Positions 23,103 through 64,000 of a stretch of 64,000 bases of DNA are shown piece after piece. Within the stretch, counting starts at the first letter, position 1. Each line of letters begins with the position of its first letter. Made by a program: the position numbers and the translations under genes. The notes below the pieces were generated by a model. It was not told the origin of the DNA. It saw only the letters and a program-made list of their open reading frames with translations, and made no database searches. Source of the stretch: Candidatus Woesearchaeota archaeon (GTDB taxonomy: Archaea; Nanobdellota; Nanobdellia; Woesearchaeales; UBA10216); NCBI GenBank assembly GCA_016180085.1, contig JACPBX010000003.1:74655-138654 (forward strand), in the 5' to 3' direction.

Positions 23103-25406
23103 ATGGGGTTTGTTCCGGTTTTCGTGTTTTTGGCATGCACCTGGGGCCTTGGGTTCTCTGTCCTGAGGCTCGCCAGGGCTGGGGAGCAGGATAGCTTTCT
23201 TGAGCGCAACGTCATGAGGATAGGCATAGGCCTGTCATCCTTTGTCGTGCTTGGAGTGATATTTAACGCTCTTGGAATCCCCCTGGACTACAGGGTTTTC
23301 CTTGTTTTTTCCGGGTTGATGCCCGCCTACGAGCTTCTGGTAAGGAAGGGCTTCAGGAAAACAAAGGCAACGCCATCAGCAAACTCGCAGGAAAAAACAG
23401 GCGGAAAGGCAGGCATGAAGCTGAAGCTATCTGACATCAACGCTGTTGTTGTCCTGGTGATATTTGCCGCAACACTCATCATGTATCTGTCAGGAGCGTT
23501 CAGGTACCCATATCTTGAGGATGACGACCCGTGGGGGCACGCGTCTGCTGTAAAGTACGTGTCTGTGGAGAAGACAGCCAATGACCCGGCTACGCTTGAT
23601 TTCCATTACATGGACCCGTATCCTCCGGGCTATGACATGGTATTGGGCATTCTGAATCAGGTTTCGTCATCAACAGCATGGACACTGAAGTTCTTCAATG
23701 CGCTTTTCATCTCCCTTAGCATCATGTTCTTTTATTTCTTCACAAAGGAGTTCTTTGGCAACAGGAACAAGGCGCTCTTCGCGGCCTTTGTGCTTGCGTC
23801 AGTGCCTGCCTACCTGAGTCATTTCATATGGGCGCCTGCGCTTGCAATGGCTGTTTTTTCCCAGGCAATGTATTCGTTGGAGATGTTAAAGCATGACAGG
23901 AAGTGGTGGGCTGTTGCAGGCGTCTGCTTTGCAGCAATATTGCTCTCGCATCCAACCCATGCAGTCAAGCTGACAGGGCTTGTGCTGATATATGTTGGCG
24001 TGAAGGCTGTTGCCAACCTTACGTTCAGCACAAAATCTCTGCCTTTGCTGCTGCGTCAGCTGCAGCCGAGCCTCGGCAATTTTGCCGCAGTTGCTTTTGG
24101 TGTTTTCCTGTCCTTGTTCTGGTGGGCAGCCAAGTGGAAAGGCTTTTTCGGCGTGGCAAGGGGAAGCTTCAGGGCAGGGAGCGAGGCTGTAACAGGGGCT
24201 GTTGGAAGCTCAGGCAGCATGCTTGCAAAGCTCCTTTCGCTGCCGGCAAGAATCTTCAACGCAGAAAGCGGCACAGCAACAAGGGTCTATCTGCTGAGGG
24301 ATTTCGCGGTTGTCCAGGGCAACAACATGATAAACAATCCCGTGGGGCTGGGCTTTTTTGCCTTCGTGCTGATGGTTGCAGGGATTGTTTCTGCTGCTTC
24401 AAAAATTGTAATGCATTTGCCAAAGAGGAAAGCCGCAATAGCTGCGGCAGCTGCGGCGGTTATAGTCCTGGCTGTGATTATAGCTTCAAACACTTATGAA
24501 TACCAGACAAACCTGTACGAGACCGGGTCTAGGTTTGCACAGTTTCTGCAGTCGCCGCCAAGCTATGCAAGCGTGTTTCTCATGTCGCTGATGTTAAGCT
24601 CATTGGCGGTCGCTTTTGTTCTTTCAATTGCTGCCATAATTATTTTGAGGCGGAAATCCCACAGCCAAGGCGACCAAGGCGACCAGGAGAATCAGCAAAA
24701 CTGGCAAAGCAGCCTTGTTATAGCAGCGATACTGCTGGGTTGGCTGCTTTTTACATTTTTGGGCGTGAACAGCCGGACGTTCAACCTGCCTGTGGGGCTT
24801 TTTGCATTCAGGTTCTGGATGATTTTTGCCATACCTGCTGCAATGCTGGCTGCCGAGGGGCTTTTTTCCATGCTGGGGCTGGTTAAGGCGCTGAAGCTTG
24901 ATGCCGCAACAGCAACAACAGTGAAACTGGCAATAATAGCTGTTGTTGTCGCGGGAGTGCTTTTCACTTCTGCGAAGCAGAAGTATGACACAAACACTAG
25001 CTGCTGGCCATCCGGTGCGTTCTGGAGCGGGGAGTTTGTGCTTGAGCCAGGCTCTAACTGCCCGGTCCAGGCAGAGCTGCTGTCCTACCAGTGGCTGAAG
25101 ACCCTGCCTGCAGGGACAAAGGTGTTTACTTTTTCCAACCCTGACCAGGTGATAGGGTTTGACAAGTACTCGTGCGGGTGGTGTGCGCCGGAATATGGCA
25201 TGCGGCAGAGGTTCTACAATGTCACAGCATCAGAACTAAACAGCTTCATGGCCGAGAACAGTTACGAATACCTTATTCTGGGAGGAATTGAAGCCAGGAA
25301 CTACGGTCTGAACAGGACAGTCCAGCTCATAAACGAGTTTGCTGAGTCAAGGCTCTTTACTGTTGCCTACAACGGCCAGTCAGCGGTGGTGTTCAGGACA
25401 GCATGA
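23103..25406 (+). CDS. Large polytopic membrane protein, GT-C-fold glycosyltransferase candidate
   Basis: 767 aa, more than 12 predicted TM segments; periplasmic-loop acidic motif YLEDDDPWGH; large C-terminal soluble domain; 4-nt overlap with the next GT-C gene. Confidence 0.55.
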   Translation: MGFVPVFVFLACTWGLGFSVLRLARAGEQDSFLERNVMRIGIGLSSFVVLGVIFNALGIPLDYRVFLVFSGLMPAYELLVRKGFRKTKATPSANSQEKTGGKAGMKLKLSDINAVVVLVIFAATLIMYLSGAFRYPYLEDDDPWGHASAVKYVSVEKTANDPATLDFHYMDPYPPGYDMVLGILNQVSSSTAWTLKFFNALFISLSIMFFYFFTKEFFGNRNKALFAAFVLASVPAYLSHFIWAPALAMAVFSQAMYSLEMLKHDRKWWAVAGVCFAAILLSHPTHAVKLTGLVLIYVGVKAVANLTFSTKSLPLLLRQLQPSLGNFAAVAFGVFLSLFWWAAKWKGFFGVARGSFRAGSEAVTGAVGSSGSMLAKLLSLPARIFNAESGTATRVYLLRDFAVVQGNNMINNPVGLGFFAFVLMVAGIVSAASKIVMHLPKRKAAIAAAAAAVIVLAVIIASNTYEYQTNLYETGSRFAQFLQSPPSYASVFLMSLMLSSLAVAFVLSIAAIIILRRKSHSQGDQGDQENQQNWQSSLVIAAILLGWLLFTFLGVNSRTFNLPVGLFAFRFWMIFAIPAAMLAAEGLFSMLGLVKALKLDAATATTVKLAIIAVVVAGVLFTSAKQKYDTNTSCWPSGAFWSGEFVLEPGSNCPVQAELLSYQWLKTLPAGTKVFTFSNPDQVIGFDKYSCGWCAPEYGMRQRFYNVTASELNSFMAENSYEYLILGGIEARNYGLNRTVQLINEFAESRLFTVAYNGQSAVVFRTA

Positions 25407-27915: not shown

Positions 27916-30219
27916 TCAGCCGGCGTTATCCCGCAGCCAGGCGGCTGTCCTCAGCAGCCCTGCTTTGAGGCTGACCTTGGGTGAATAGCCAACCTCATTC
28001 TTAATCTTGGAAAGGTCAGGGCATCTTCTCCTTGGCTCGTCCTGCGGATAGTTTGCAGGGTAGCTTATCAGCTTTACGTGGACTTTGTTGCTGAAGACCT
28101 CTCCGGCTATTGTTTCTGCAAGGGCAAGCATGTTGATTTCCTCAGCGTCATTGCCAACATTGTAGACCTGGCCAGCCCTCCCGAGGAGCAGGACCTTGAA
28201 AAAGCCTGTGACTGCATCTGTTATGTAGCAGAATGCCCTTGTCTGGTTGCCCTTGTCATAAACAGTCAGCTCCCTGCCCTGAAGTCCCAGGCTCAGCATT
28301 GTTGGTATTACCCTGTAATCCGTGCTTTTCATGCCGGGGCCGTAAACGTTAAACGGCCTGACAATCCTTGCCGGGGTTTTGTGGACGCTGTAATGGGCCA
28401 TGCACATTGTTTCCCCCATGCGCTTTGATTCGTCATAGCAGGACCTCTCGCCGATTGAGGAAACATTGCCTTTGTACGTTTCCGGAGTTGGGATAAAGTT
28501 CGGGTCAGGGTCTCCGTAAATCTCGCTTGAGCTGAAGTACAGGAGGGCATTCACTTTTTTCTGCCCGGCCAGCTCAAGCGCGTTTTTAACCCCAAATATG
28601 GTTCCTTCTATTGTTTCTATGGGGTAGCGCTTGTAATATATGGGTGAGGCGACTCCTGCAGCACTGATTATGTAGTCTATGGGCTCCTCAATGGCAGCAG
28701 GAAATCTGACATCGTGCTTTACAAACTTTATGTGCTTGCTGTTGATTTCCTTCAGCATGTTGTTCCTGGAGTTCTGGCCTGTGATGTGGATGTCCAGGGA
28801 GATGACTTTGCACGGCTTCGCAAGAAACTTTCTGTTGAGGAGGTCAATTGTGGCAACAATGCAGCTGCCTATAAAGCCAGAGCCCCCTGTAATCAGGACA
28901 GTGCTTCCTTCGAGCATGCCAAGCATCCTGGCATCTTCCTTTATTGCCCCTGCAATTGTATCCAGGTCCTGCTCGACAATGCCATTGATAACCTGCGGCT
29001 CCGGAACAGGAATGATAAAGTTGCTGAAATCAGCGCACTTCTTCATTATCGGCTCGGCAAAGTTCCAGGCAAGTATGAGGATGTAGTCCGGCCTGTGCTT
29101 GTAAAGCTCGTCGAACGCAACAACAGGAATGTGCGTGCCCGGGGTGTGCATGCCCTGTTTCCACGGGCTGTCGTCAACAATGTAGTCAAGCACTTCGGGG
29201 CCAATCTGGAAATAATTGAGAAGCGTGTTGCCTTTTGCAGGTGCCCCATAGCCTACAATCTTCTTGCTCCTGGACTTCAGCTCTTTCAGCAGCTCTTTCA
29301 GTTTTACCTTGTTCTGCTCAATCTTCTTCGCGAACTCAGCGTACGTTGCCGCTTTTGAAAGGTGCCTGGCATCTTCCATTTCCGTGAACTTTCCCACAGA
29401 TTCCTCAATCTTGTATGGGCCGCCGGATTTCTGGGCGAACACCCTGAGAGAGCCGCCATGGGTGTCTGTTTCAGAAACATCAAACACCTCCATGCCAAGG
29501 CGGTGCAGCAATTTTGAGGCTGTCTTTGCAGTGAAATACGAGAGGTGCTCATGATAGATTAGGTCAAACAGGTTTTTTTCCAGCAGCTCGTAAAGGTAGT
29601 AGACCTCAATGATAAAAACGCCGTCGTCAGCAAGAAGCTCCTTTACGCCGCTGACAAAGCCATCAAGGTCATCAACGTGGGAGAAGACGCTCGTTGCTGT
29701 TATGGCTTTTGCCTTGCCATACTTTCTGGCAATGTCCTTGGCAATTATGGGTGTGAAAAAAACAGGCAATGTCTCGATGCCGCTTTTGGTTGCCATTGCA
29801 GCTATCTTCTCTGCCGGGTCAATGCCCAGAACCTTCATTCCCTTCTCTTTGAACGGGCGAAGCAATACCCCGTCGTTGCTGCCAACATCAACTACAAGGG
29901 AACTTGGCTTCAGCTTGAAGCGCTTAATAACCGTGTCTGCGAGGTCCCTGAAATGCTGCACAAAGACCGGGGAGGTTGAGGAAACGTAAACATAATCCCT
30001 GAAGAGGAGCTCTGGGGAAACAACGCTGGTAAGCTGGACAAAGCCGCAGTCGCTGCAGAAGGAAAGCCCAAGGGGGAAAAACTGCTCACTATCAGTCGGG
30101 CTCTTGATGAAGGCGTTGGCAGGCGGGGTGGAGCCCAAAGACAGCACATTAGCCAGCTTCCTGCCTGTGCATACCCTGCAGAATGTTTTTTCCTGTACAG
30201 ATTCAGCCATAAAAAACAC
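27916..30219 (-). CDS. Fusion protein: N-terminal TylCIII-type sugar C-methyltransferase + C-terminal UDP-glucuronate decarboxylase (UXS/ArnA-Cterm)-like extended SDR
   Basis: 767 aa; residues 1-400: CRVC...CSDCGF Zn-ribbon + DVGSNDG SAM motif + C-MT C-terminal domain; residues 410-767: LITGGSGFIGS, SSSEIYGDP, CYDESKRMGE (UXS YxxxK region). Confidence 0.75.
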   Translation of the reverse strand: MFFMAESVQEKTFCRVCTGRKLANVLSLGSTPPANAFIKSPTDSEQFFPLGLSFCSDCGFVQLTSVVSPELLFRDYVYVSSTSPVFVQHFRDLADTVIKRFKLKPSSLVVDVGSNDGVLLRPFKEKGMKVLGIDPAEKIAAMATKSGIETLPVFFTPIIAKDIARKYGKAKAITATSVFSHVDDLDGFVSGVKELLADDGVFIIEVYYLYELLEKNLFDLIYHEHLSYFTAKTASKLLHRLGMEVFDVSETDTHGGSLRVFAQKSGGPYKIEESVGKFTEMEDARHLSKAATYAEFAKKIEQNKVKLKELLKELKSRSKKIVGYGAPAKGNTLLNYFQIGPEVLDYIVDDSPWKQGMHTPGTHIPVVAFDELYKHRPDYILILAWNFAEPIMKKCADFSNFIIPVPEPQVINGIVEQDLDTIAGAIKEDARMLGMLEGSTVLITGGSGFIGSCIVATIDLLNRKFLAKPCKVISLDIHITGQNSRNNMLKEINSKHIKFVKHDVRFPAAIEEPIDYIISAAGVASPIYYKRYPIETIEGTIFGVKNALELAGQKKVNALLYFSSSEIYGDPDPNFIPTPETYKGNVSSIGERSCYDESKRMGETMCMAHYSVHKTPARIVRPFNVYGPGMKSTDYRVIPTMLSLGLQGRELTVYDKGNQTRAFCYITDAVTGFFKVLLLGRAGQVYNVGNDAEEINMLALAETIAGEVFSNKVHVKLISYPANYPQDEPRRRCPDLSKIKNEVGYSPKVSLKAGLLRTAAWLRDNAG

Positions 30220-44399: not shown

Positions 44400-45128
44400 A
44401 TGGCAACGCGTTACTCTGACGCAGGGTATGAAATCATTGACTGCATACACGTGGCTCAGCGCTTTGTCAGCTGGATGTACGCCGTGGTAAGGCCCCATCT
44501 TTACGGGAACATCCTGGAAATAGGTTCGGGAAGAGGCACATACTCTGAGAGGCTTACAAGGGATTTTCCCGGCAGTAAGCTGATTTTTTCCGACATAGAT
44601 CCCGATTATGTCAGGCAGTTAAGGCAAAAGTTCCGGTCAAACAAGGATGTGACTGTGCTTCTGCTTGACATGGGGAAGCCCGCTGATTACGGGAAAATCC
44701 GCCAGAGGGTCGACTCTGTTTTCGCTTTAAACGTCCTTGAGCATATTAAAGACGATGTCGCAGCTTTGAAGCACATTTATGGCATTCTGCCAAAAAACGG
44801 CAGATGCGTTATCTTAGTCCCAGCCCATAAGATGCTTTACAACACAATTGATGTTGCACTCCGCCACTACCGCCGTTATTCGAAAAGAGAGGTCGTGGAA
44901 AAGGCGAAGCTGGCGAATTTCCGTATCAGGCACTTGTCCTATTTCAATTTCGTGGCAGTGCTTGGCTGGTTTGTTAATGGCAATCTGATGAGGAAAAAAG
45001 TTTTCAGCTATACCGGCATGCAAACGCTTAATGCCCTGGTCCCTGTGCTGCAGTTCATTGAAAAGCACATTTTGAGGAATAGCTTCGGGATTTCCATACT
45101 TGCCGTGCTTGAAAAGCCTGGCGATTAA
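44400..45128 (+). CDS. Class I SAM-dependent methyltransferase
   Basis: Track start 44376 is TTG; first ATG at 44400; ILEIGSGRG motif I. Confidence 0.7.
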   Translation: MATRYSDAGYEIIDCIHVAQRFVSWMYAVVRPHLYGNILEIGSGRGTYSERLTRDFPGSKLIFSDIDPDYVRQLRQKFRSNKDVTVLLLDMGKPADYGKIRQRVDSVFALNVLEHIKDDVAALKHIYGILPKNGRCVILVPAHKMLYNTIDVALRHYRRYSKREVVEKAKLANFRIRHLSYFNFVAVLGWFVNGNLMRKKVFSYTGMQTLNALVPVLQFIEKHILRNSFGISILAVLEKPGD

Positions 45129-46270
45129 GTTGGGGAGGATTCTTCTGCAAGATCATCTGCAATTTTCTCTGCCAGTTCCGCCTTCCTTCTTTTTTCCTCT
45201 TCAATCACGCCATGGGTCTCGTAATATTCCTGCAGCGTTTCATCGTAAATTTCAGCATGCCTTTTTGCGATTTTTTCAAGGTTGGCATCCTGCCGGTATT
45301 TTTCCACTCCTCTCTGGTAAATGCCGTAGCTGCTGTGCACCTTCCTTATCCCGGCTGCTATCGCTTTTGGGCTGCGTGGCTCAACAACAACCCCGCATCT
45401 GAACTCTTTCACTATTTCTGCAAGTGCGCCTACGTCACTAACCACAACCGGTATTCCATAGGCAAACGCATTATGCAGTGTTCCTGACTGGTAAGGCGCC
45501 CAGATATAGGGGAAAACCATTATGTCTGCCTTATCAAGGTATTTCAGTTTCTCATTTTCAGGCACCCACCTTATGTCGAGCCTTACATTGCCCAGCTTGT
45601 TCTCTGAAGCGCTTTCCCTCAGCAGATTTTCGTAGTCTGCCGTTACTGCCTTTCCTGCAATAGTAAGGTTGAAGCCTGGCAGCTCATTCATCGCCCTTAT
45701 GAGGTATTCAGCTCCCTTGCCGTGGCTGAGCATTCCGAATAGCAGAATGTTTTTGCCTTTGGTGATGTGCATTGGCATAAGCTTTGTGATGAGGTGGTGG
45801 TAAACTGCATATGCCTGCTTTTTCTTGTACTTTAGCTGCAGGAACTCCTTCTGCTGCCTTGTGTGCGCTATGGCTGCAGACGCTTTTTTTGTTATCCACT
45901 TCTGCAGGAAGGACAGCGCTTTTTCCTTTAGCGTTTCTGTTGCTGTATGCACCTCATGGAACGTCACCACAACCGGGACTTTTTGGCTTAGCGCCACGAG
46001 GAGGTTGAGGTTCAGCGTCAGCTTTCCGAAATGGGGTGCTATGTATTGTATGTGCAGCAGGTCAAGCTTCTCTTCTTCGGCTATCCGCTTCAGCTGCGAT
46101 TTCAAGGAGAACGACTTGAAATCAATCCTGTGGTGCGCTGTTGTTGACTCCCTGTCCCCAATCTTTACTACTGTGATGCCCGCCTCTTCAAGCCCCTCGC
46201 ACAGGGCCGCAGAGTAAAGCGCTATGCCGTCCTGCTGCTCAGGGTATTTGCTTACCATTCCGATTTTCAT
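45125..46270 (-). CDS. Glycosyltransferase, GT-B fold (group 1/GT4-like)
   Basis: 381 aa; C-terminal ...FAYGIPVVVSDVGALAEIV... Glycos_transf_1-like. Confidence 0.7.
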   Translation of the reverse strand: MKIGMVSKYPEQQDGIALYSAALCEGLEEAGITVVKIGDRESTTAHHRIDFKSFSLKSQLKRIAEEEKLDLLHIQYIAPHFGKLTLNLNLLVALSQKVPVVVTFHEVHTATETLKEKALSFLQKWITKKASAAIAHTRQQKEFLQLKYKKKQAYAVYHHLITKLMPMHITKGKNILLFGMLSHGKGAEYLIRAMNELPGFNLTIAGKAVTADYENLLRESASENKLGNVRLDIRWVPENEKLKYLDKADIMVFPYIWAPYQSGTLHNAFAYGIPVVVSDVGALAEIVKEFRCGVVVEPRSPKAIAAGIRKVHSSYGIYQRGVEKYRQDANLEKIAKRHAEIYDETLQEYYETHGVIEEEKRRKAELAEKIADDLAEESSPT

Positions 46271-55987: not shown

Positions 55988-56315
55988 CTGCAGCTGGGAG
56001 CAGTATTGTCTGGTTCTGTATTTTCAGCCCTGCAAGCCCCAGGTAATAGCTTGCTACTCCGCTTACCGCCATGGCAGCAACAGTGCCTGCAACAGTCCTT
56101 TCCACAAAGCCAAGCTTTTCCCTCCAGTAAAAGGTCAGTGCGTAGCCTGGAATCACAAACAGCCAGAAGAGGGATGCTGTTGTTTTTACTACTTCAATCA
56201 GCCCTTCTTTGTAGTAGGCTATCTTGAAAATGATTGTCGCAGCAATGAACGCAGCAACGGCAAATTTCGCTTCCCTTTTTAGCTCAGCCAGGCCGTAGTC
56301 AGGCAATGCAGTCAC
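55908..56315 (-). CDS. Small membrane protein, hypothetical
   Basis: 135 aa, 4 TMs; 17-nt overlap with the upstream 56299-58044 gene suggests co-transcription. Confidence 0.35.
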   Translation of the reverse strand: MTALPDYGLAELKREAKFAVAAFIAATIIFKIAYYKEGLIEVVKTTASLFWLFVIPGYALTFYWREKLGFVERTVAGTVAAMAVSGVASYYLGLAGLKIQNQTILLPAAVIALSLALSSKFWARKSQQQQGQKPQ

Positions 56316-58044
56316 CCCCGATGCCGTTGTTCCTGAGCACAGTCAGGTACTGGTTTTCATATTCGGCGCTCATGTTTGCATTGAGGAACTGTTGTATCAG
56401 GTAAAGGCTTGCCTGCTGCAGCGCAGGCTGTGGTGAAGACCTGTCTATCAGGTAATAGTCTGCGCTGCAAATGTCCACAGGGCCCCTGATTACGGTGTCC
56501 TGCGTGTGCTGCCCGAAGCTGAACAGGCCTTTCCTGTACGGCAGGCCTGAGCCGCTGTCTGAGGTATAAGTTACTGTCAGCATTCTGTCAAACTTTCCTG
56601 TAGTGATGAGCTTATTTATGGCCTCTGCAAACTCCGGTATGTCAAGGAAGTAGTTTTTTCTTTCAGTGTTGTATAGAACAGATGTCTGGCTGTACATCAG
56701 GCTAAATGGGACATACACTGTTGCCTCCTTTGGCGTGTTGTCCGCAATCCACCTCATCGCTTCCCAGTGCTCCTTCGTCATGCCGCCGCCTGATGTTGGC
56801 TCATAGTAAACAGCCAGGACAGCTGCGCCCAGCAATGCTGTGATTGCAGCTGCAGCAATAAACATGTTAAACTTTTTCAGGACAGGGCTTAGGAACAGCC
56901 GCACCAGCTGGTAGATGCCAAACCCTGCGAGAGGCGCGAGTGTTATTGGCCAGAAAAGCCTTGTCTGGAATGACCTGAGCCCGAATCCCGCATAAGTTCC
57001 CAGGCCGGCCAGTAGCATGTAGCCCGAAAAAAGCAGCGCCAAAAGCTTCGGGCTTGAAAATACCCTTTCAAGCTCGTCCCTTTTTTGCAGGACAAACAGC
57101 ACAGCAAAAACAAGCCCTGCAATGATTGCAATCAGCATAAACCCGAAAGTAGTCGGGAAAACAGTGGCTGCCGGGAAGCTTGCACTTACGGTTTCAACAT
57201 TGAAGCGGTAGCCTTGCATTTTTAGCCAGATGCCTATGAACAGCGGCCAGAAATAAAGCGTGGGTATTATCGCCAGGATGAGGCCTGTAAGGATTTTCCT
57301 GTTCTCCTGGAAGAAAATCTTCAGCCCTGCAAGCTTGTGTTTTGCTAAATTTGCTGCCAAAAGCACAGCAAAGGCTGCAGAAAGCAGTATGCCTAAAAAA
57401 AGCGTTTCTGACGTGTGCGTCATTATCGTTCCTGCGAGCGGCATTGCCAGCAGAAGGTAGCCCCTCGGCAGCTCGAGCTTGGTCAGCGCCCAGGCTGTTG
57501 TTGCCAAAAAAAGGCTTGAGAATGCAAAGGGCATTTGCCCGAAAGTCGCCATGCCAAGAAACGGCTTTCCTGTTGCTGCGAACAGTGTTAGTGGCAGAGC
57601 AAGCATGCCGACATGCCTGCCCAGGCTTTTGGCAATGTGGTAGGCCACAAGTGCCGCAAGTGCAAGGGCCAGGCCTATGACAAGCATCAGCGAATCATAA
57701 CTTGCCTGTCCGCTAAGGTTTGACAAAAGAGCTGTTACGTGGTAAGTTACCGGCGGGTAAAACCCGAGCACATCCTTGAGCCCGGCCATCATGTACGGCG
57801 CTTCTGCCCTGTACTGCCCCATCTGCTTTATGGCTTCAGCCCTTGCCTGGTGCTGGTAGGAATCGCTTGCCCCATACCCAACAGGATAGTCATGGTTTAT
57901 TTTGTGCCCTGAAGCGGTTCCAACCCCAAGAAAAAGTATTGCAGTGAAGAACGCAGCAAGGATGGCAACCTCAATAAGGCCTTCTACCCCTTTCGCGTTG
58001 CCTGCCGTATTGCCTGCTTCTCCTGCTTTTTCCTCTTCAGCCAT
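56299..58044 (-). CDS. Polytopic membrane protein, GT-C-like candidate
   Basis: 581 aa; loop motif YGASDSYQHQARAE (D-x-x-x-H...AR). Confidence 0.5.
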   Translation of the reverse strand: MAEEEKAGEAGNTAGNAKGVEGLIEVAILAAFFTAILFLGVGTASGHKINHDYPVGYGASDSYQHQARAEAIKQMGQYRAEAPYMMAGLKDVLGFYPPVTYHVTALLSNLSGQASYDSLMLVIGLALALAALVAYHIAKSLGRHVGMLALPLTLFAATGKPFLGMATFGQMPFAFSSLFLATTAWALTKLELPRGYLLLAMPLAGTIMTHTSETLFLGILLSAAFAVLLAANLAKHKLAGLKIFFQENRKILTGLILAIIPTLYFWPLFIGIWLKMQGYRFNVETVSASFPAATVFPTTFGFMLIAIIAGLVFAVLFVLQKRDELERVFSSPKLLALLFSGYMLLAGLGTYAGFGLRSFQTRLFWPITLAPLAGFGIYQLVRLFLSPVLKKFNMFIAAAAITALLGAAVLAVYYEPTSGGGMTKEHWEAMRWIADNTPKEATVYVPFSLMYSQTSVLYNTERKNYFLDIPEFAEAINKLITTGKFDRMLTVTYTSDSGSGLPYRKGLFSFGQHTQDTVIRGPVDICSADYYLIDRSSPQPALQQASLYLIQQFLNANMSAEYENQYLTVLRNNGIGGDCIA

Positions 58045-58094: not shown

Positions 58095-60500
58095 TCACTT
58101 GCCTGCGCTTTTAACAATCTTGACTGTGGCAGCAGCGAACTCATTCACTTTCCCTTTTTCCACAAGGATTCCCTTCTTTAGCACCTCAGGGTGTGAGCCA
58201 ATCCTGAACGCAATTGCAGGCTTTCCGACAGCGTTTGCCTCGCAATTATGTATTGCACCTTGTAACGTTGTATAACTTCGGTCTTTGCTTACTTCTATGT
58301 TGCAAACAGGACCATTGTAGGCCTTGTCCTGTATGCGGCGGATTTGGGTGTAGAAGTACCTGTCATCAAGCCAGTAACGGTTATGTGCCCCTCGGGCTTT
58401 ATTAGTTTGGCACCTTTCTCCCAGGATGTTGCAAAAAGCATGTTTGTATTGTCCGGTCACGCTTAAATTGTACTCTATGCCTTTATCTCCCCTGTTGGCA
58501 ACATGAATATTGCAACCAATTCCTAATCGGAAAAGCACGTCCCGTATCTGTTCCGCTAATTTTTGTGAAGCTGTGCTAAATGAAACAATCGTATTGCCTT
58601 TGGCATCGTTGAAAACGCAGCCGTCTCCTCTCCACAACCCCTTGACAAGCTCTTTTAGTTTATGTGGTGGCAGCCTAAGGAACTCGGCAGGAATCTGTTT
58701 GTTTTTAGCACCAGTCTCTCCTAAAGCTGAGAAAAGCCTGTTGAGCAGTTGTGAGGTGAAGAATATGCGGCAGCCGTTCTTTTTTATCTCACGATAACCT
58801 TCTATATCAAAAATTCTTTTTACCAGTGTTAAGACGTCATTTTGGTATGTTTGCTCGCCTGCATGAAACGAAAAGATTAGTGTTGATTTTGTCTTTGAAG
58901 CGTGTCCTTCAGACAGGTAGTAGCCAAACAAGCGAAGGAAGTCACCATTAACTCTTACTTTGGTTGGTACAGAAATTTTTGCTCGTGGAACGTACCTCGC
59001 CTTTTTTAAATAAGCGCTGATTAAGAAACGTTTGGATAGGCTTAGTTGGTTGGGAATATTATTTAGGTAGCGATATATTGCATTCTTACTTAGGCGCAAT
59101 TTTTTCCCGATCGCTTCGTAGGTTTCTTTACCACGTTCGGTCTTCCTGCTGTATCTATAAAAAAGCCTGTCGTTTCCCTCAATTGTGCCGGGCAAATACC
59201 GTTTTAGATTTAAATATGTCTTATCAACTATTTTGTTGTTATACGGGTAAATAAGTACATCCTTCTCATTTAATTGTTCTGCTTCTATCCATTCAGGCCG
59301 ATACAGCAAATGGTACTTTTTTAAGCACTTATGATTTGGTTTGCAAGTTCTGTTTGACTTGCACATCTTTGTTCGTAGCGCATAAATCCTGTGCTCTGGA
59401 GTTATTTCGAGCGGTATGTTACAGCCATACACCCTGATGCTTTTTAACTTTCCTCTGTAAGCTCTTCTTGAGACAGCAGTAATAAGTTCTTCTCTGCCAA
59501 GGTGTGTAGTTACCTTATCTCCTGCTTTAAGGTTGCCTATTGCAGTATAGCCGTCATAGCATTTAATCAGGGATTTTGGCGTAAGACAAAGTGGAATATT
59601 GAACCCTTCCCACATGCTTGCAGTCACATATGCATCGCATGCGCCGTAGTAAGCTGGCAGTTCTTTGTCAGCAACAAATCCCGTGAATGCCACTCCTCCG
59701 ATTTCCGCAGCCGTTTTTTGCAGCTGCCTTGAATATTTCGGAAAGGTATGCTTTCCGACAACAACCAGGGTTGCGGCAGGGATTTTCTCTTTTACCAGCT
59801 TAAACGCCTGAAGCAGCAGGTGAACTCCTTTATGGGGTGATATCCTTCCAACGTATAACAGCACCGGCTTCCTCAGGTTGTGTTTTTTCACAACCGCAGC
59901 AATCTCTTTTTTATATTTCGCAGCCGCATTTTTATTGAACCTTTTTGTGTCTATCTTCACATACTTGACCTGGCTGTTGAGGCCGGTTTCCTTTTTCAGC
60001 TCGCTGCCGCAGAACTTGCTTATCGATATTGCCGCATCAGCATTCTTAACGGTTATTTTTGTGAATGCAGCGAATATCTTCATGTAAACCCTCTCAAAAA
60101 ACCCGTCAAAAAGCTGCGGGTAGGCAACTCCAACATCATAATAAACGTATTTCAGCCTCTGCCCCATTCTTTTCCTTGCCAGCATCGCAGGCAATGTCAT
60201 CGGGTAAAGAAAGCTGATTGCCTTATCAAACCCGCTCAGCCTGTTGACAATTCTTATTACCTTCGCAGCATCAAGGAAGAAGAGTAATCTGTAAATTCTC
60301 TCCAGCAGCGGCTGCTTTGGCATTCCCAGCACTTCAACAGCTATGCCTTTCTTTTGCAGCTGCAGCGTATCAAAATCGGTTTTGAAAGTTATTACTGTAA
60401 CATCATTCTTGCCTGCTGCCAGCTCTGTCGCTTCATTGTAAACTACCCTGTCAGGACCGGAGAACTTCGAGAAGGTTGGAGTGAGTATTGCGATGTTCAT
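58095..60500 (-). CDS. GT4 (group 1) glycosyltransferase interrupted by a 448-aa intein; extein = residues 1-304 + 753-801 (353 aa)
   Basis: ATG 60500..60498 verified; extein junction ...SMWEGFNIPL | CEANAVGKPAIAF... reconstitutes the GT4 E-X7-E motif (compare EGFGYTAAEAAAMGKPIVAS in the 62955 gene). Confidence 0.85.
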   Translation of the reverse strand: MNIAILTPTFSKFSGPDRVVYNEATELAAGKNDVTVITFKTDFDTLQLQKKGIAVEVLGMPKQPLLERIYRLLFFLDAAKVIRIVNRLSGFDKAISFLYPMTLPAMLARKRMGQRLKYVYYDVGVAYPQLFDGFFERVYMKIFAAFTKITVKNADAAISISKFCGSELKKETGLNSQVKYVKIDTKRFNKNAAAKYKKEIAAVVKKHNLRKPVLLYVGRISPHKGVHLLLQAFKLVKEKIPAATLVVVGKHTFPKYSRQLQKTAAEIGGVAFTGFVADKELPAYYGACDAYVTASMWEGFNIPLCLTPKSLIKCYDGYTAIGNLKAGDKVTTHLGREELITAVSRRAYRGKLKSIRVYGCNIPLEITPEHRIYALRTKMCKSNRTCKPNHKCLKKYHLLYRPEWIEAEQLNEKDVLIYPYNNKIVDKTYLNLKRYLPGTIEGNDRLFYRYSRKTERGKETYEAIGKKLRLSKNAIYRYLNNIPNQLSLSKRFLISAYLKKARYVPRAKISVPTKVRVNGDFLRLFGYYLSEGHASKTKSTLIFSFHAGEQTYQNDVLTLVKRIFDIEGYREIKKNGCRIFFTSQLLNRLFSALGETGAKNKQIPAEFLRLPPHKLKELVKGLWRGDGCVFNDAKGNTIVSFSTASQKLAEQIRDVLFRLGIGCNIHVANRGDKGIEYNLSVTGQYKHAFCNILGERCQTNKARGAHNRYWLDDRYFYTQIRRIQDKAYNGPVCNIEVSKDRSYTTLQGAIHNCEANAVGKPAIAFRIGSHPEVLKKGILVEKGKVNEFAAATVKIVKSAGK
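58245..59588 (-). mobile_element. Class-1 intein with nested LAGLIDADG homing endonuclease
   Basis: Block A CLTPKSLIKCYDG (Cys1 codon 59588..59586 verified as TGT), block B LEITPEHRIYAL, LAGLIDADG motifs LRLFGYYLSEGHA and LVKGLWRGDGCV, block F VCNIEVSKDRSY, block G GAIHN followed by the +1 Cys. Confidence 0.8.
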
Positions 60501-60524: not shown

Positions 60525-61445
60525 TTAAAACGTTTTCGGTGCCGGCATTACTTCCTGCTTGGCAAGGTCTTCCAAAGTAACATTTCTCAGGTAATTCCTG
60601 ATTTCGCCGTCAGAAGCGCCGGCCTTCAGTTTGACATCCACAGAGTCTCCTACCATGTAGGCAACCTGCAGCGTTCTTTCTATCCCTCTGTTGTTCAGGT
60701 ACACGAACGGCCCTGACAGAGCTATGCTGAAGCCAAGCATAGGACTGAAGTACGAGAGCATGACTGCCACAAAGTCCAACAACAAATTTCTTCTATTTAT
60801 TACCTCTTCCGGTGTGGGGCGCGCACCCAGAAGCAGGTTTTTCTCGTGAACGGGCATATACCTGTTAATGCCGTATCGTATGAAGCGCGGATCATTGAGA
60901 GCCTGTGCGACGCGTACGGTTGAAAAGTTGTCGGCTATTCTGCTCACTAGGGCTGCACCAGCCGAAAGCAGCAAAAGTCTTCTGGTGGAAGAGGGTTTTC
61001 GCGCACGATAAACGTCCCATAAAGTTGAGTATGTCCTCGCTAAAATCCTTCCTGATTGCGGAGTTTTTTCTGAAAATTGTCTTGGCGGCAGTTTCTTATC
61101 TCTTCTCATGGTAAGCTCTGCCCCAACTATCGCCCCAGTGTAGAGGGTGGCTCCTATCACCCTATCATAATAATCAAAATCTTCTATTCTGCTCAGCAGT
61201 CTTCGGGCGGCAACTATTATTCTCGGTGCATACTTTGCGGCAGGGCTCTCTTCTCCTTTGAGCTGCGCAATCTCCTGTTCCCTTTCCCCGCTCTCCAGTA
61301 AATCTCCCCGGGCTGCTGCTAATGCCGCCAGCCCGCCAAACGAAACATATATCCAAGCCCTTCTTACAAATTCTCTTCTGGTAATCAGGGCGTTCTCAAT
61401 CTCGTCTGCGGCTTTTTTGGTTACATCATCCAATGGCATACGCAC
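60525..61445 (-). CDS. Hypothetical exported protein with twin-arginine (Tat) signal peptide
   Basis: 306 aa; TRREFVRRAWIYVSFGGLAALAAA resembles the S/T-R-R-x-F-L-K + h-region Tat consensus. Confidence 0.45.
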   Translation of the reverse strand: MRMPLDDVTKKAADEIENALITRREFVRRAWIYVSFGGLAALAAARGDLLESGEREQEIAQLKGEESPAAKYAPRIIVAARRLLSRIEDFDYYDRVIGATLYTGAIVGAELTMRRDKKLPPRQFSEKTPQSGRILARTYSTLWDVYRARKPSSTRRLLLLSAGAALVSRIADNFSTVRVAQALNDPRFIRYGINRYMPVHEKNLLLGARPTPEEVINRRNLLLDFVAVMLSYFSPMLGFSIALSGPFVYLNNRGIERTLQVAYMVGDSVDVKLKAGASDGEIRNYLRNVTLEDLAKQEVMPAPKTF

Positions 61446-62954: not shown

Positions 62955-64000
62955 TTAAAGCTTTTTGTATAGCAGCCCCGTGTAAGCGGACAGGTAATTT
63001 CTCACGTTTTCCTCAATCGTGAACTTTCTCAGCTTTGTCCTGTGGCACTTGCCATGAAACATGCCCACAACAGCATCTGCTATCTCCATGCTGTTATTTG
63101 GCTCAACAAGGATGTGCTTTCCGCTGACAACTTCGGGCAATGATGTGGTGTTGCTTGCGACGATTGGCTTTCCCATAGCAGCCGCTTCAGCAGCAGTGTA
63201 GCCAAACCCTTCGCTTATTGATGGCACAACAACGCAGTCTGCCGCCTTTATGTAGCTTGGCAGTTCGGAATGGGCGACAGGCTCAACGTTTATTATTCTG
63301 CCCTCAAGTTGCAGTTTTTTTATCAGTTGCATCAGCTGCGAATATTTTTTCGCGTATTGTTTGTCGCGGCTTAGCAGCAGCATCATTCTCGCATTTGGAA
63401 TTTTTTGGCTTATATCCTTCATCGCAGTTATTGCATGCTCGATTCCCTTGCTTGTGCCCGGCCTTCCGTAAACGAGCAGCACATAATTTCCCAAGTCGCC
63501 TTTGGCGACTGGGCCCAATCGTGCTTTTGCACGATTTGGGTTCTGCAGCGAGTATTTTTTCCTTATCTTTTCGCCGCTGTATTTTTTAGGGTTAAAGTGC
63601 CCATAATCTACGCCGTTGTATATGGTGATGGCGTTTTTCTTCCCTATCCTCAATAGTTGTTGCCGTGTTGAGTTTGAGACTGCAACGTACTTATCGACGG
63701 CAGGAAGCAGGTAGAGGAATCTTTCGAACATGTCGTGAAGGAAAACCTTGACTGGGTTAAAGTCCGTGTACTCCCTCCATTTACCGACCCATACCTCATG
63801 AACAGTCACAATGAGGGGCTTTCGTGCAAATTTTGCAGCCACCCATGCGGGAAAGAAGCCGTTAAAGGTTGTTGTGTGCACGATGTCCGCTTTTTTGGCA
63901 GAGGCAATGGCAGCCGGTATAGAAAAAAACGTGAACAGCTCCCTGCTTCCGAAGCAGCTCACCCTTTTCACTTTCACCCCATTGATTGTTTCCTCTGCAG
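62955..64000 (-). CDS. GT4 glycosyltransferase, N-terminus truncated by the window end
   Basis: Canonical EGFGYTAAEAAAMGKPIVAS (E-X7-E); the frame remains open upstream of the track's GTG start (63977) to position 64000. Confidence 0.8.
   Translation of the reverse strand, partial: AEETINGVKVKRVSCFGSRELFTFFSIPAAIASAKKADIVHTTTFNGFFPAWVAAKFARKPLIVTVHEVWVGKWREYTDFNPVKVFLHDMFERFLYLLPAVDKYVAVSNSTRQQLLRIGKKNAITIYNGVDYGHFNPKKYSGEKIRKKYSLQNPNRAKARLGPVAKGDLGNYVLLVYGRPGTSKGIEHAITAMKDISQKIPNARMMLLLSRDKQYAKKYSQLMQLIKKLQLEGRIINVEPVAHSELPSYIKAADCVVVPSISEGFGYTAAEAAAMGKPIVASNTTSLPEVVSGKHILVEPNNSMEIADAVVGMFHGKCHRTKLRKFTIEENVRNYLSAYTGLLYKKL

Follow-up and report, generated by a model that had tools for sequence, protein, structure and literature searches.

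The window analyzed here, a stretch of 64,000 nucleotides from a Candidatus Woesearchaeota archaeon (contig JACPBX010000003.1), carries on its minus strand an 801-aa open reading frame (ORF) that encodes the precursor of a GT4 glycosyltransferase, interrupted within the E-X7-E motif of its sugar-donor site by a class-1 intein that carries a LAGLIDADG homing endonuclease. We hold with considerable confidence that this intein most likely excises itself from the precursor and then homes to alleles of the gene that are still empty. The ORF and the limits of the insert lie exactly where an earlier note on this DNA, made from the letters alone, had placed them (58245-59588, residues 305-752), and the parts of the precursor, together with the uninterrupted gene used as reference, are as follows.

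58095..60500, minus strand: precursor ORF, 801 aa and 90.9 kDa, predicted GT4 glycosyltransferase interrupted by the intein; stop codon at 58095-58097
59589..60500, minus strand: N-extein, residues 1-304: N-terminal domain of the GT-B fold and the beginning of the C-terminal one (Glycos_transf_1), up to ...WEGFNIPL
59607-59609, minus strand: E298, the first Glu of E-X7-E, within the N-extein
58245..59588, minus strand: predicted intein, 448 aa, 51.8 kDa, pI 9.8, precursor residues 305-752, from Cys1 (59586-59588) to Asn448 (58245-58247)
58095..58244, minus strand: C-extein, residues 753-801 and stop codon, with the +1 Cys at 58242-58244 and then the second Glu of E-X7-E at 58239-58241
62955..63977, minus strand: intact GT4 paralog, the reference for an uninterrupted E-X7-E, by Pfam and alignment

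The splice junctions read ...WEGFNIPL|CLTPKSL... upstream and ...LQGAIHN|CEANAVGKPA... downstream, the insert being situated between X6 and X7 of the host motif, and conceptual splicing gives a 353-aa product in which the motif is restored (E298-GFNIPLC-E306). The Pfam profile Glycos_transf_1 (PF00534) matches the full ORF in two stretches with 92 bits and the spliced product in a single stretch (profile positions 8-157 of 172) with 112 bits; this was the check that the earlier note had proposed for its reading, and a split domain that becomes continuous, and scores higher, once the insert is taken out means that the insert is not a chance pattern. The N-terminal half of the spliced extein matches Glyco_transf_4 (PF13439) with 36.7 bits, both families being above their cutoffs. 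The restored motif aligns without gaps to the intact paralog (SISEGFGYTAAEAAAMGKP), as the earlier note had maintained, and likewise to the solved GT4 structures 5i45 and 2f9f, and among the orthologs the first Glu is conserved in 119 of 120 and the second in 98 of 120. The predicted host enzyme is a GT4 glycosyltransferase of the GT-B fold and of the retaining type; as to its donor and acceptor specificity, the matches are generic to GT4, with the best NCBIfam ones far below their cutoffs, and the NCBI entry of the exact protein (P0001) bears the name "glycosyltransferase [Candidatus Woesearchaeota archaeon]." Two independently assembled SRA runs (L067, L068) and the NCBI metagenome-assembled genome contain the gene without a nucleotide difference, and it is therefore not an assembly chimera or artefact.

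The insert, judged from its residues and its modeled fold, is a class-1 intein of the canonical kind that carries a LAGLIDADG homing endonuclease; its parts, numbered from the first residue of the intein, are these.

59214..59588, minus strand: N-terminal Hint (splicing) half, intein residues 1-125, with block A Cys1 and block B TPEH (C1, T63, and H66 invariant in 13 related inteins)
59391-59402, minus strand: block B TPEH (T63-P-E-H66), by sequence motif
59325..59363, minus strand: Cys-rich knuckle CKSNRTCKPNHKC, C76-x5-C82-x3-H/C86-x-C88, within the N-terminal Hint half (C76, C82, and C88 invariant in the five GT4 alleles)
59001..59129, minus strand: helix-turn-helix (HTH)-like accessory block (KETYEAIGKKLRLSKNAIYRYLN...), three helices in the AlphaFold2 model and sub-threshold Pfam matches
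58389..58973, minus strand: predicted LAGLIDADG homing-endonuclease domain, intein residues 206-400, by Pfam LAGLIDADG_3
58905-58931, minus strand: LAGLIDADG motif 1, LFGYYLSEG, with the putative catalytic E227, by sequence motif
58620-58646, minus strand: LAGLIDADG motif 2, VKGLWRGDG, with the putative catalytic D322, by sequence motif
58245..58388, minus strand: C-terminal half of the Hint domain (intein residues 401-448), containing blocks F (VCNIEV) and G (...GAIHN); H447 and N448 invariant

The splicing residues C1, T63, H66, H447, and N448, as well as Cys+1, are invariant in the five known GT4 alleles of the intein, which are 49-69% identical, and in 13 members of its clade, and the same is true of the endonuclease residues E227, D322, and K297. 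The CLTPKSL start, TPEH, LFGYYLSEG, VCNIEV, and AIHN|C are all present as the earlier note had listed them, the second LAGLIDADG motif having been given as LKGLWRGDG instead of VKGLWRGDG, a trivial slip. The Pfam match to LAGLIDADG_3 reaches 50 bits against a cutoff of 22.5, and in NCBIfam the insert matches the models for Tes, PolII large subunit, DnaB, GyrA, RecA, and RNR in their intein portions, the best being NF045703, the intein-containing tetraether lipid synthase Tes (E = 1.6e-15). With the single sequence, a search of the PDB gives PI-PkoII weakly (E = 7e-4); with a profile of 13 sequences (the insert and its relatives) the same protein is matched at E = 1.9e-26, over both the Hint and the endonuclease parts, together with the KlbA mini-intein 2jmz (N-terminal Hint half) and the TFIIB mini-intein 5o9i (C-terminal half). 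The AlphaFold2 model of the insert has a mean predicted local distance difference test (pLDDT) of 87.8 and a predicted template-modeling score (pTM) of 0.82, and when it is compared with the PDB by Foldseek the top 16 matches are all endonuclease-containing inteins (TliVMA, PI-PkoII, PI-SceI, PI-PfuI; E from 9e-21 to 7e-13), the free-standing LAGLIDADG enzymes I-DmoI, I-Tsp061I, and I-SceI coming after them. The conserved residues, the profile, and a fold search with only inteins at its head all bear out the identification that the earlier note had made.

Two accessory modules accompany this core. The Cys knuckle may be a metal-binding insert, perhaps a zinc site, and the HTH-like block, with helices at residues 157-163, 168-175, and 184-196 in the AlphaFold2 model (pLDDT 59-84), is probably an extra DNA-binding module of the endonuclease; its Pfam matches (HTH_22, HTH_23, TetR_N) are all sub-threshold, and weak matches to HTH_29 and HTH_11 appear in the related glycosyltransferase-resident inteins P0149 and P0162. 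The knuckle and the block of about 64 aa that includes the HTH-like segment first looked specific to the GT4 intein. However, both were found in many inteins resident in GT4, RadA, IMPDH, and radical-SAM proteins, and are missing only from the IscU/OFOR/TrxR intein group; being common to inteins of unrelated hosts, they are therefore modules of the intein and not adaptations to a particular host. The knuckle recurs in P0164, P0178, P0218, P0175, P0147, P0156, and P0226, whose hosts are unrelated.

The insertion site is defined by the many relatives that lack the intein, which the earlier note had proposed to seek. A search with the spliced extein finds GT4 proteins by the hundred, about 350 aa long and for the most part from Woesearchaeota, with up to 87% identity over their full length, and the alignment of 115-120 intein-free orthologs shows zero gap at L304|C305 in every one of them. 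The earlier note had named intact homologs with conserved sequence across the junction as the sign of a genuine inserted domain, and conserved non-intein sequence of that kind was found in none of the approximately 120 intact orthologs aligned. The closest empty ortholog (P0013) is encoded on contig L001, where the gene order (GT4, 577-aa protein, 133-aa protein) is that of the window, its two neighbors being 88% and 87% identical to those of the window and the exteins 81.5% identical at the nucleotide level. The empty site reads ...TTCAACATTCCGATA|GTGGAGGCAAACGCC... and the occupied one ...TTCAATATTCCACTT|[intein]|TGCGAGGCAAACGCT...; around the junction the empty site of L001 is AGCATGTGGGAAGGATTCAACATTCCGATA|GTGGAGGCAAACGCCTGCGGAAAGCCGGCA, and the junction peptide of the predicted spliced enzyme is ...FNIPLCEANAVGK... 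/ ...GFNIPLCEANAVGKPAIAFR. All five intein alleles have Cys at position +1; of the 115 empty orthologs, 86 have Val there, 15 have Ala, and 6 have Cys. The −1 residue is hydrophobic, Leu in the window allele and Val, Ile, or Ala in the other intein alleles.

If the residues act as they do in class-1 inteins, the precursor would mature in four steps: (i) an N-S acyl shift at Cys305, helped by Thr367 and His370 of block B; (ii) trans-thioesterification to Cys753, the +1 residue; (iii) cyclization of Asn752, helped by His751; (iv) and finally, an S-N shift that would join Leu304 to Cys753. From a precursor of 90.9 kDa there would result an active enzyme of 39.2 kDa with E-GFNIPLC-E and a free intein of 51.8 kDa. 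The unspliced precursor would very probably be inactive, because the two Glu of the donor-binding motif lie on one helix, which the insert divides, and from the position of the insert it is reasonable to suppose that glycosylation by the host enzyme would depend on splicing. The free intein, or the precursor itself, would then cut intein-less alleles at the DNA that encodes the motif (about ...TGGGAAGGNTTCAAYATTCC...|...GAGGCAAACGC...), and repair templated by the occupied allele would copy in the intein together with short flanks, including the Cys+1 codon.

The distribution of the intein is sporadic. In a neighbor-joining tree of 115 orthologs the five intein alleles (P0001-P0005) are scattered, each with an intein-free sister. 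The GC content at third codon positions is lower in the intein than in the extein in the three genomes examined, 0.41 vs. 0.51-0.53 in the window, 0.31 vs. 0.48 in L002, and 0.45 vs. 0.56 in L003, that is, the intein is more AT-rich than the host gene in all three, by 10-17 points. The flanks also differ with occupancy, as C(+1)EAxAV(+6)GK is found in four of the five intein alleles, against VEAxACGK in their empty sisters (codons +1 to +6, window positions 58227-58244), and the empty alleles with Cys+1 also tend to have Val+6 (4 of 6, namely P0022, P0025, P0064, and P0076, vs. 14 of the 109 others; Fisher p = 0.005). This C...V pattern looks like what would be expected from the co-conversion of short flanks during homing, followed by precise loss of the intein; an alternative is selection against a second Cys beside the +1 nucleophile.

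Several points weigh against an intein that splices and homes. Splicing and DNA cleavage are both deduced from sequence and model, in an uncultured DPANN archaeon, and the neighbor-joining trees are unbootstrapped. That the reading frame stays open across the intein does not by itself speak for endonuclease function, since any stop would also destroy the host enzyme. The intein model Hint_2, when searched with the single sequence, gives 22.1 bits against a cutoff of 28.4, and in the same type of search PF14890 has no match to the insert at E ≤ 0.1; of the intein models by which the earlier note had wished its claim to be judged, LAGLIDADG_3 exceeds its threshold and Hint_2 does not, but the 13-sequence profile matches mini-inteins on both Hint halves, and on the whole the tests that the earlier note had set come out in its favor. 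In block F (V-C-N-I-E-V...R-S-Y) the common Asp is replaced by Asn430 and His is missing. Finally, the inteins are less identical than the exteins in nine of ten allele pairs, and inteins that are generally more diverged than their exteins would also fit an old vertical inheritance with repeated loss.

This last point sustains the alternative that survives best, to which we nevertheless assign only a minor share of the probability: the intein would be competent to splice and its endonuclease inactive, so that it would descend by vertical inheritance only, with precise deletion being rare and the patchiness due to repeated loss. The intein and extein trees agree coarsely for P0001, P0002, and P0003, and a close version of the intein is found in only two reference species, as such descent would have it. 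However, both LAGLIDADG acidic residues and K297 are invariant, and the endonuclease domain is conserved as much as the Hint domain, with a mean pairwise identity of 54% against 55% in the N-terminal Hint half (conservation being taken from protein identity per domain, as alleles with only 49-69% protein identity would have saturated synonymous sites). Furthermore, the AT-rich composition is kept in three genomes of differing GC; the presence of a close empty sister for each intein allele would require at least five independent precise losses; and in the exceptional pair P0004/P0005, whose exteins belong to distant clades, the intein is 60% identical and the extein 55.5%, a contrast that hints at a horizontal transfer.

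A second alternative, which we consider improbable, accepts the splicing and makes it conditional, in such a way that a domesticated intein, gated by a Cys1-Cys+1 disulfide, by metal in the knuckle, or by temperature, would act as a switch on surface-glycan synthesis. Both junction nucleophiles are Cys, the intein holds 12 Cys including those of the invariant C-x5-C-x3-[H/C]-x-C knuckle, and the insertion, by its place in the donor-binding motif, probably leaves the precursor without activity; for other inteins a case for conditional splicing has been made (PMC4760082). However, most orthologs are without the intein, which argues for its dispensability, and the knuckle and the HTH are not peculiar to this host, as seen above.

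It is very improbable, in turn, that the insertion is a dead one that does not splice, the GT4 gene being effectively a pseudogene tolerated through the paralogous GT4 genes of the island, of which there are others nearby at 62955-63977 and 45125-46270. What could be said for it is principally block F without the common Asp and His. Those residues are frequent among class-1 inteins and not universal, and the variant V-[YH]-N-L-E-V is common to the whole clade; it occurs also in inteins lodged in core enzymes (OFOR-beta and IscU, for example) of complete genomes, among them that of Ca. Nitrosotenuis chungbukensis MY2, and is therefore probably compatible with splicing, and the clade members with this Asn inside core enzymes support the splicing competence of the clade. 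The deviation lowers the certainty about the kinetics of splicing rather than about class-1 membership. Moreover, none of the splice-site residues has been lost in five lineages whose identity is down to 49%, and the exteins are still 55-87% identical to empty orthologs, with every residue of the motif kept. As for a non-splicing inserted domain (Hint-like, or an endonuclease in a loop) or an artefact of assembly, it has in its favor the sub-threshold single-sequence Hint score and nothing beyond, and is effectively refuted by the identity of the gene across three independent assemblies, the zero junction gaps against about 120 orthologs, the location inside a catalytic helix motif and not a loop, the presence of every terminal residue of an intein, and a fold that matches whole inteins.

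An exhaustive profile search recovers 14,091 cluster representatives when the limit is E ≤ 1e-3, of which 1,127 still pass at E ≤ 1e-30, and among 187 complete inteins from the top 150 representatives about 13 are located at the E-X7-E of other, distantly related GT-B enzymes. In the Pfam scan of ten proteins with a GT-B-resident intein, nine break or resume the Glycos_transf_1 match at positions 107-110 of the 172 of the profile, the break in the window protein being at 109 (a GT4 hidden Markov model built locally was too specific for distant hosts, and Pfam and the junction motifs were used in its place). The site is occupied in two registers, E-x6|C-E (the window, P0149, and P0151) and E-x5|C-x-E, and further GT-B inteins are found directly before the first Glu (P0173, P0176) and nine residues past the second (P0140), and with several positions occupied around E-X7-E the region of the donor-binding motif is therefore a multi-site hotspot. 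On a single origin of the glycosyltransferase-resident inteins the neighbor-joining tree, star-like at depth, speaks neither for nor against. P0149 (1420 aa) and P0151 (1405 aa), both containing GT-B, have two inteins each, one of them at E-X7-E, and P0145 (4920 aa) and P0147 (4392 aa) are giant proteins with at least four inteins of the same clade.

Outside the glycosyltransferases the nearest relatives are 27-37% identical, and their hosts are IscU, OFOR-beta, TrxR-like, SufB-like, 4Fe-4S, IMPDH-like, radical-SAM, and RadA-like proteins and UDP-glucose dehydrogenase, in DPANN, Nitrososphaerota, Methanomassiliicoccales, bacteria of the candidate phyla radiation (CPR), Bipolaricaulota, and Planctomycetes; the intein almost always directly precedes a native catalytic or ligand Cys. 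Metabolic and redox enzymes are the usual hosts of the wider clade. The WCPG|CGDFG motif of the 2-oxoacid:ferredoxin oxidoreductase beta subunit (OFOR-beta) is interrupted in many Nitrososphaerota (including Ca. Nitrosotenuis chungbukensis MY2, L022), Bipolaricaulota, and CPR bacteria, and other relatives occupy the active sites of IscU (VGNxx|CGD) and of TrxR-like proteins (SYCAT|CDGP), at loci L006, L014, L018, L020, and L022-L062. Among viral contigs the sole match to the intein profile is L066 (IMG/VR UViG_3300031578_010458), a 1367-aa ORF of 23% identity with a Ser +1 junction, and this one weak match gives no evidence of a viral vector for the intein.

Regarding its setting, the window is, by the predicted functions of its genes, a large glycan-biosynthesis island, in which Pfam scans recognize GT2, GT4, PMT_2/GT-C-like membrane proteins, a Wzx-type flippase, a DegT aminotransferase, DUF2079 and DUF6541 proteins, and a C-methyltransferase/epimerase fusion. 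Two ORFs of the island, which covers the greater part of the window, are of 767 aa, at 23103-25406 (plus strand) and 27916-30219 (minus strand), one being a DUF6541 membrane protein and the other the fusion, of a Methyltransf_13/14 C-methyltransferase with an NAD-dependent epimerase/dehydratase. The intein gene belongs to a co-oriented run, conserved in L001 and L067, of an ArsR-type regulator, a 306-aa protein, the GT4-intein gene, and two membrane proteins, of which its nearest members are the following.

60525-61445, minus strand: 306-aa protein, flanking the intein gene
56299-58044, minus strand: 581-aa polytopic membrane protein, syntenic with L001
55908-56315, minus strand: 135-aa membrane protein, syntenic with L001

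In the Pfam scans the downstream 581-aa and 135-aa proteins have nothing or a weak DUF6541 match only, and the flanking 581-aa and 306-aa proteins, without a match, are both kept beside the GT4 gene in L001, L067, and L068. No other intein was found in the window by Pfam scans of 20 further ORFs, including all those of at least 500 aa. A natural fusion from a Joint Genome Institute (JGI) metagenome (P0006, 761 aa) has an N-terminal half 41% identical to the 62955 GT4 and a C-terminal half 44% identical to the intein-free extein, and as it fuses orthologs of both it would link the two functionally, which suggests that the two GT4 enzymes of the window may act together. The 62955 ORF, near the end of the window, appears to lack about 55 residues at its N-terminus.

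The intein itself is entirely canonical; what is new is the host, the site, and the recurrence of the site. A published census places 61-67% of intein hosts in replication, recombination, and repair (COG category L), and among its top hosts there is no glycosyltransferase, the sole envelope-related archaeal one being UDP-glucose dehydrogenase (PMC4760082). Judged by this census, the opinion of the earlier note that the host is unusual holds; in metagenomes it does not, as the same site is occupied in at least 12 other GT-B families. No published report of an intein in a glycosyltransferase was found in full-text searches of an incomplete library of papers.

The consequences go beyond the particular gene. 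A large intein clade of uncultured archaea and bacteria sits in the active-site motifs of metabolic and envelope enzymes, including the sugar-donor motif of GT-B, which weakens the argument that the host bias of inteins reflects a special link to the biology of DNA or ATP, and supports a simpler rule, by which any short, highly conserved, and indispensable coding sequence that gives inteins a stable homing site allows them to persist. At a practical level, annotations of "glycosyltransferases" of about 800 aa are flagged as precursors with a mature form of about 350 aa, a new natural intein of the Cys1/Cys+1 type, its −1 residue being hydrophobic, is supplied, and a candidate rare-cutting endonuclease with a defined target is offered. 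More speculatively, the E-X7-E region of GT-B could be a recurrent and hitherto unrecognized homing hotspot with at least 3-4 insertion points, in which gene conversion driven by the endonuclease (with the C...V flanks as its trace), and perhaps splicing gated by redox state or metal by way of the two Cys nucleophiles and the knuckle, would shape the exchange and switching of surface-glycan genes between DPANN lineages; taken as a whole this proposal is improbable, and if it were true the intein would be more than a passive parasite.

Among the closest known systems are the GT-B/GT4-resident inteins of metagenomes (P0149, P0151, P0162, P0164, P0165, P0170, P0178, P0218, P0227, P0246, P0251, P0253, P0274, and P0287), which have the same organization, HTH block included; in contrast, their host families are only distantly related, and most of them use the register E-x5|C-x-E, whereas the window uses E-x6|C-E. 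The KGLWRGDG-type inteins of OFOR-beta, IscU, TrxR-like, and 4Fe-4S proteins share the block residues and the LAGLIDADG motifs of the window intein, although they are without the HTH block and the Cys knuckle that it possesses, and they precede a native Cys, whereas in the GT4 the +1 Cys replaces the usual Val. The archaeal class-1 inteins PI-PkoII (the Pol-2 intein of Thermococcus kodakarensis, 2cw7) and TliVMA/PhoVMA (7qsu, 7qss, 7qst) have, as here, a Hint domain that encloses a two-motif LAGLIDADG endonuclease, and they provide the best profile match (PI-PkoII, E = 1.9e-26) and, as a group, the best fold matches (E = 9e-21, TM 0.59/0.70); however, their hosts are DNA polymerase B and subunit A of the V-ATPase, they are only 14-16% identical to the window intein, and its knuckle and HTH-like block are unmatched in the alignments with them. 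PI-SceI, the yeast VMA1 intein (1vde/1lws) and prototype of homing inteins, has the same two-domain architecture with an extra DNA-recognition region and matches the fold at E of about 1e-16, but it is eukaryotic, has another host protein, and is 11-13% identical. Lastly, the archaeal UDP-glucose dehydrogenase intein (PMC4760082, Table 2) and the Tes intein (NF045703), to which may be added P0144, a UDP-glucose dehydrogenase intein distantly related to that of the window, are precedents within envelope and sugar-nucleotide metabolism, although they occupy other host folds and other sites, and neither host is a glycosyltransferase.

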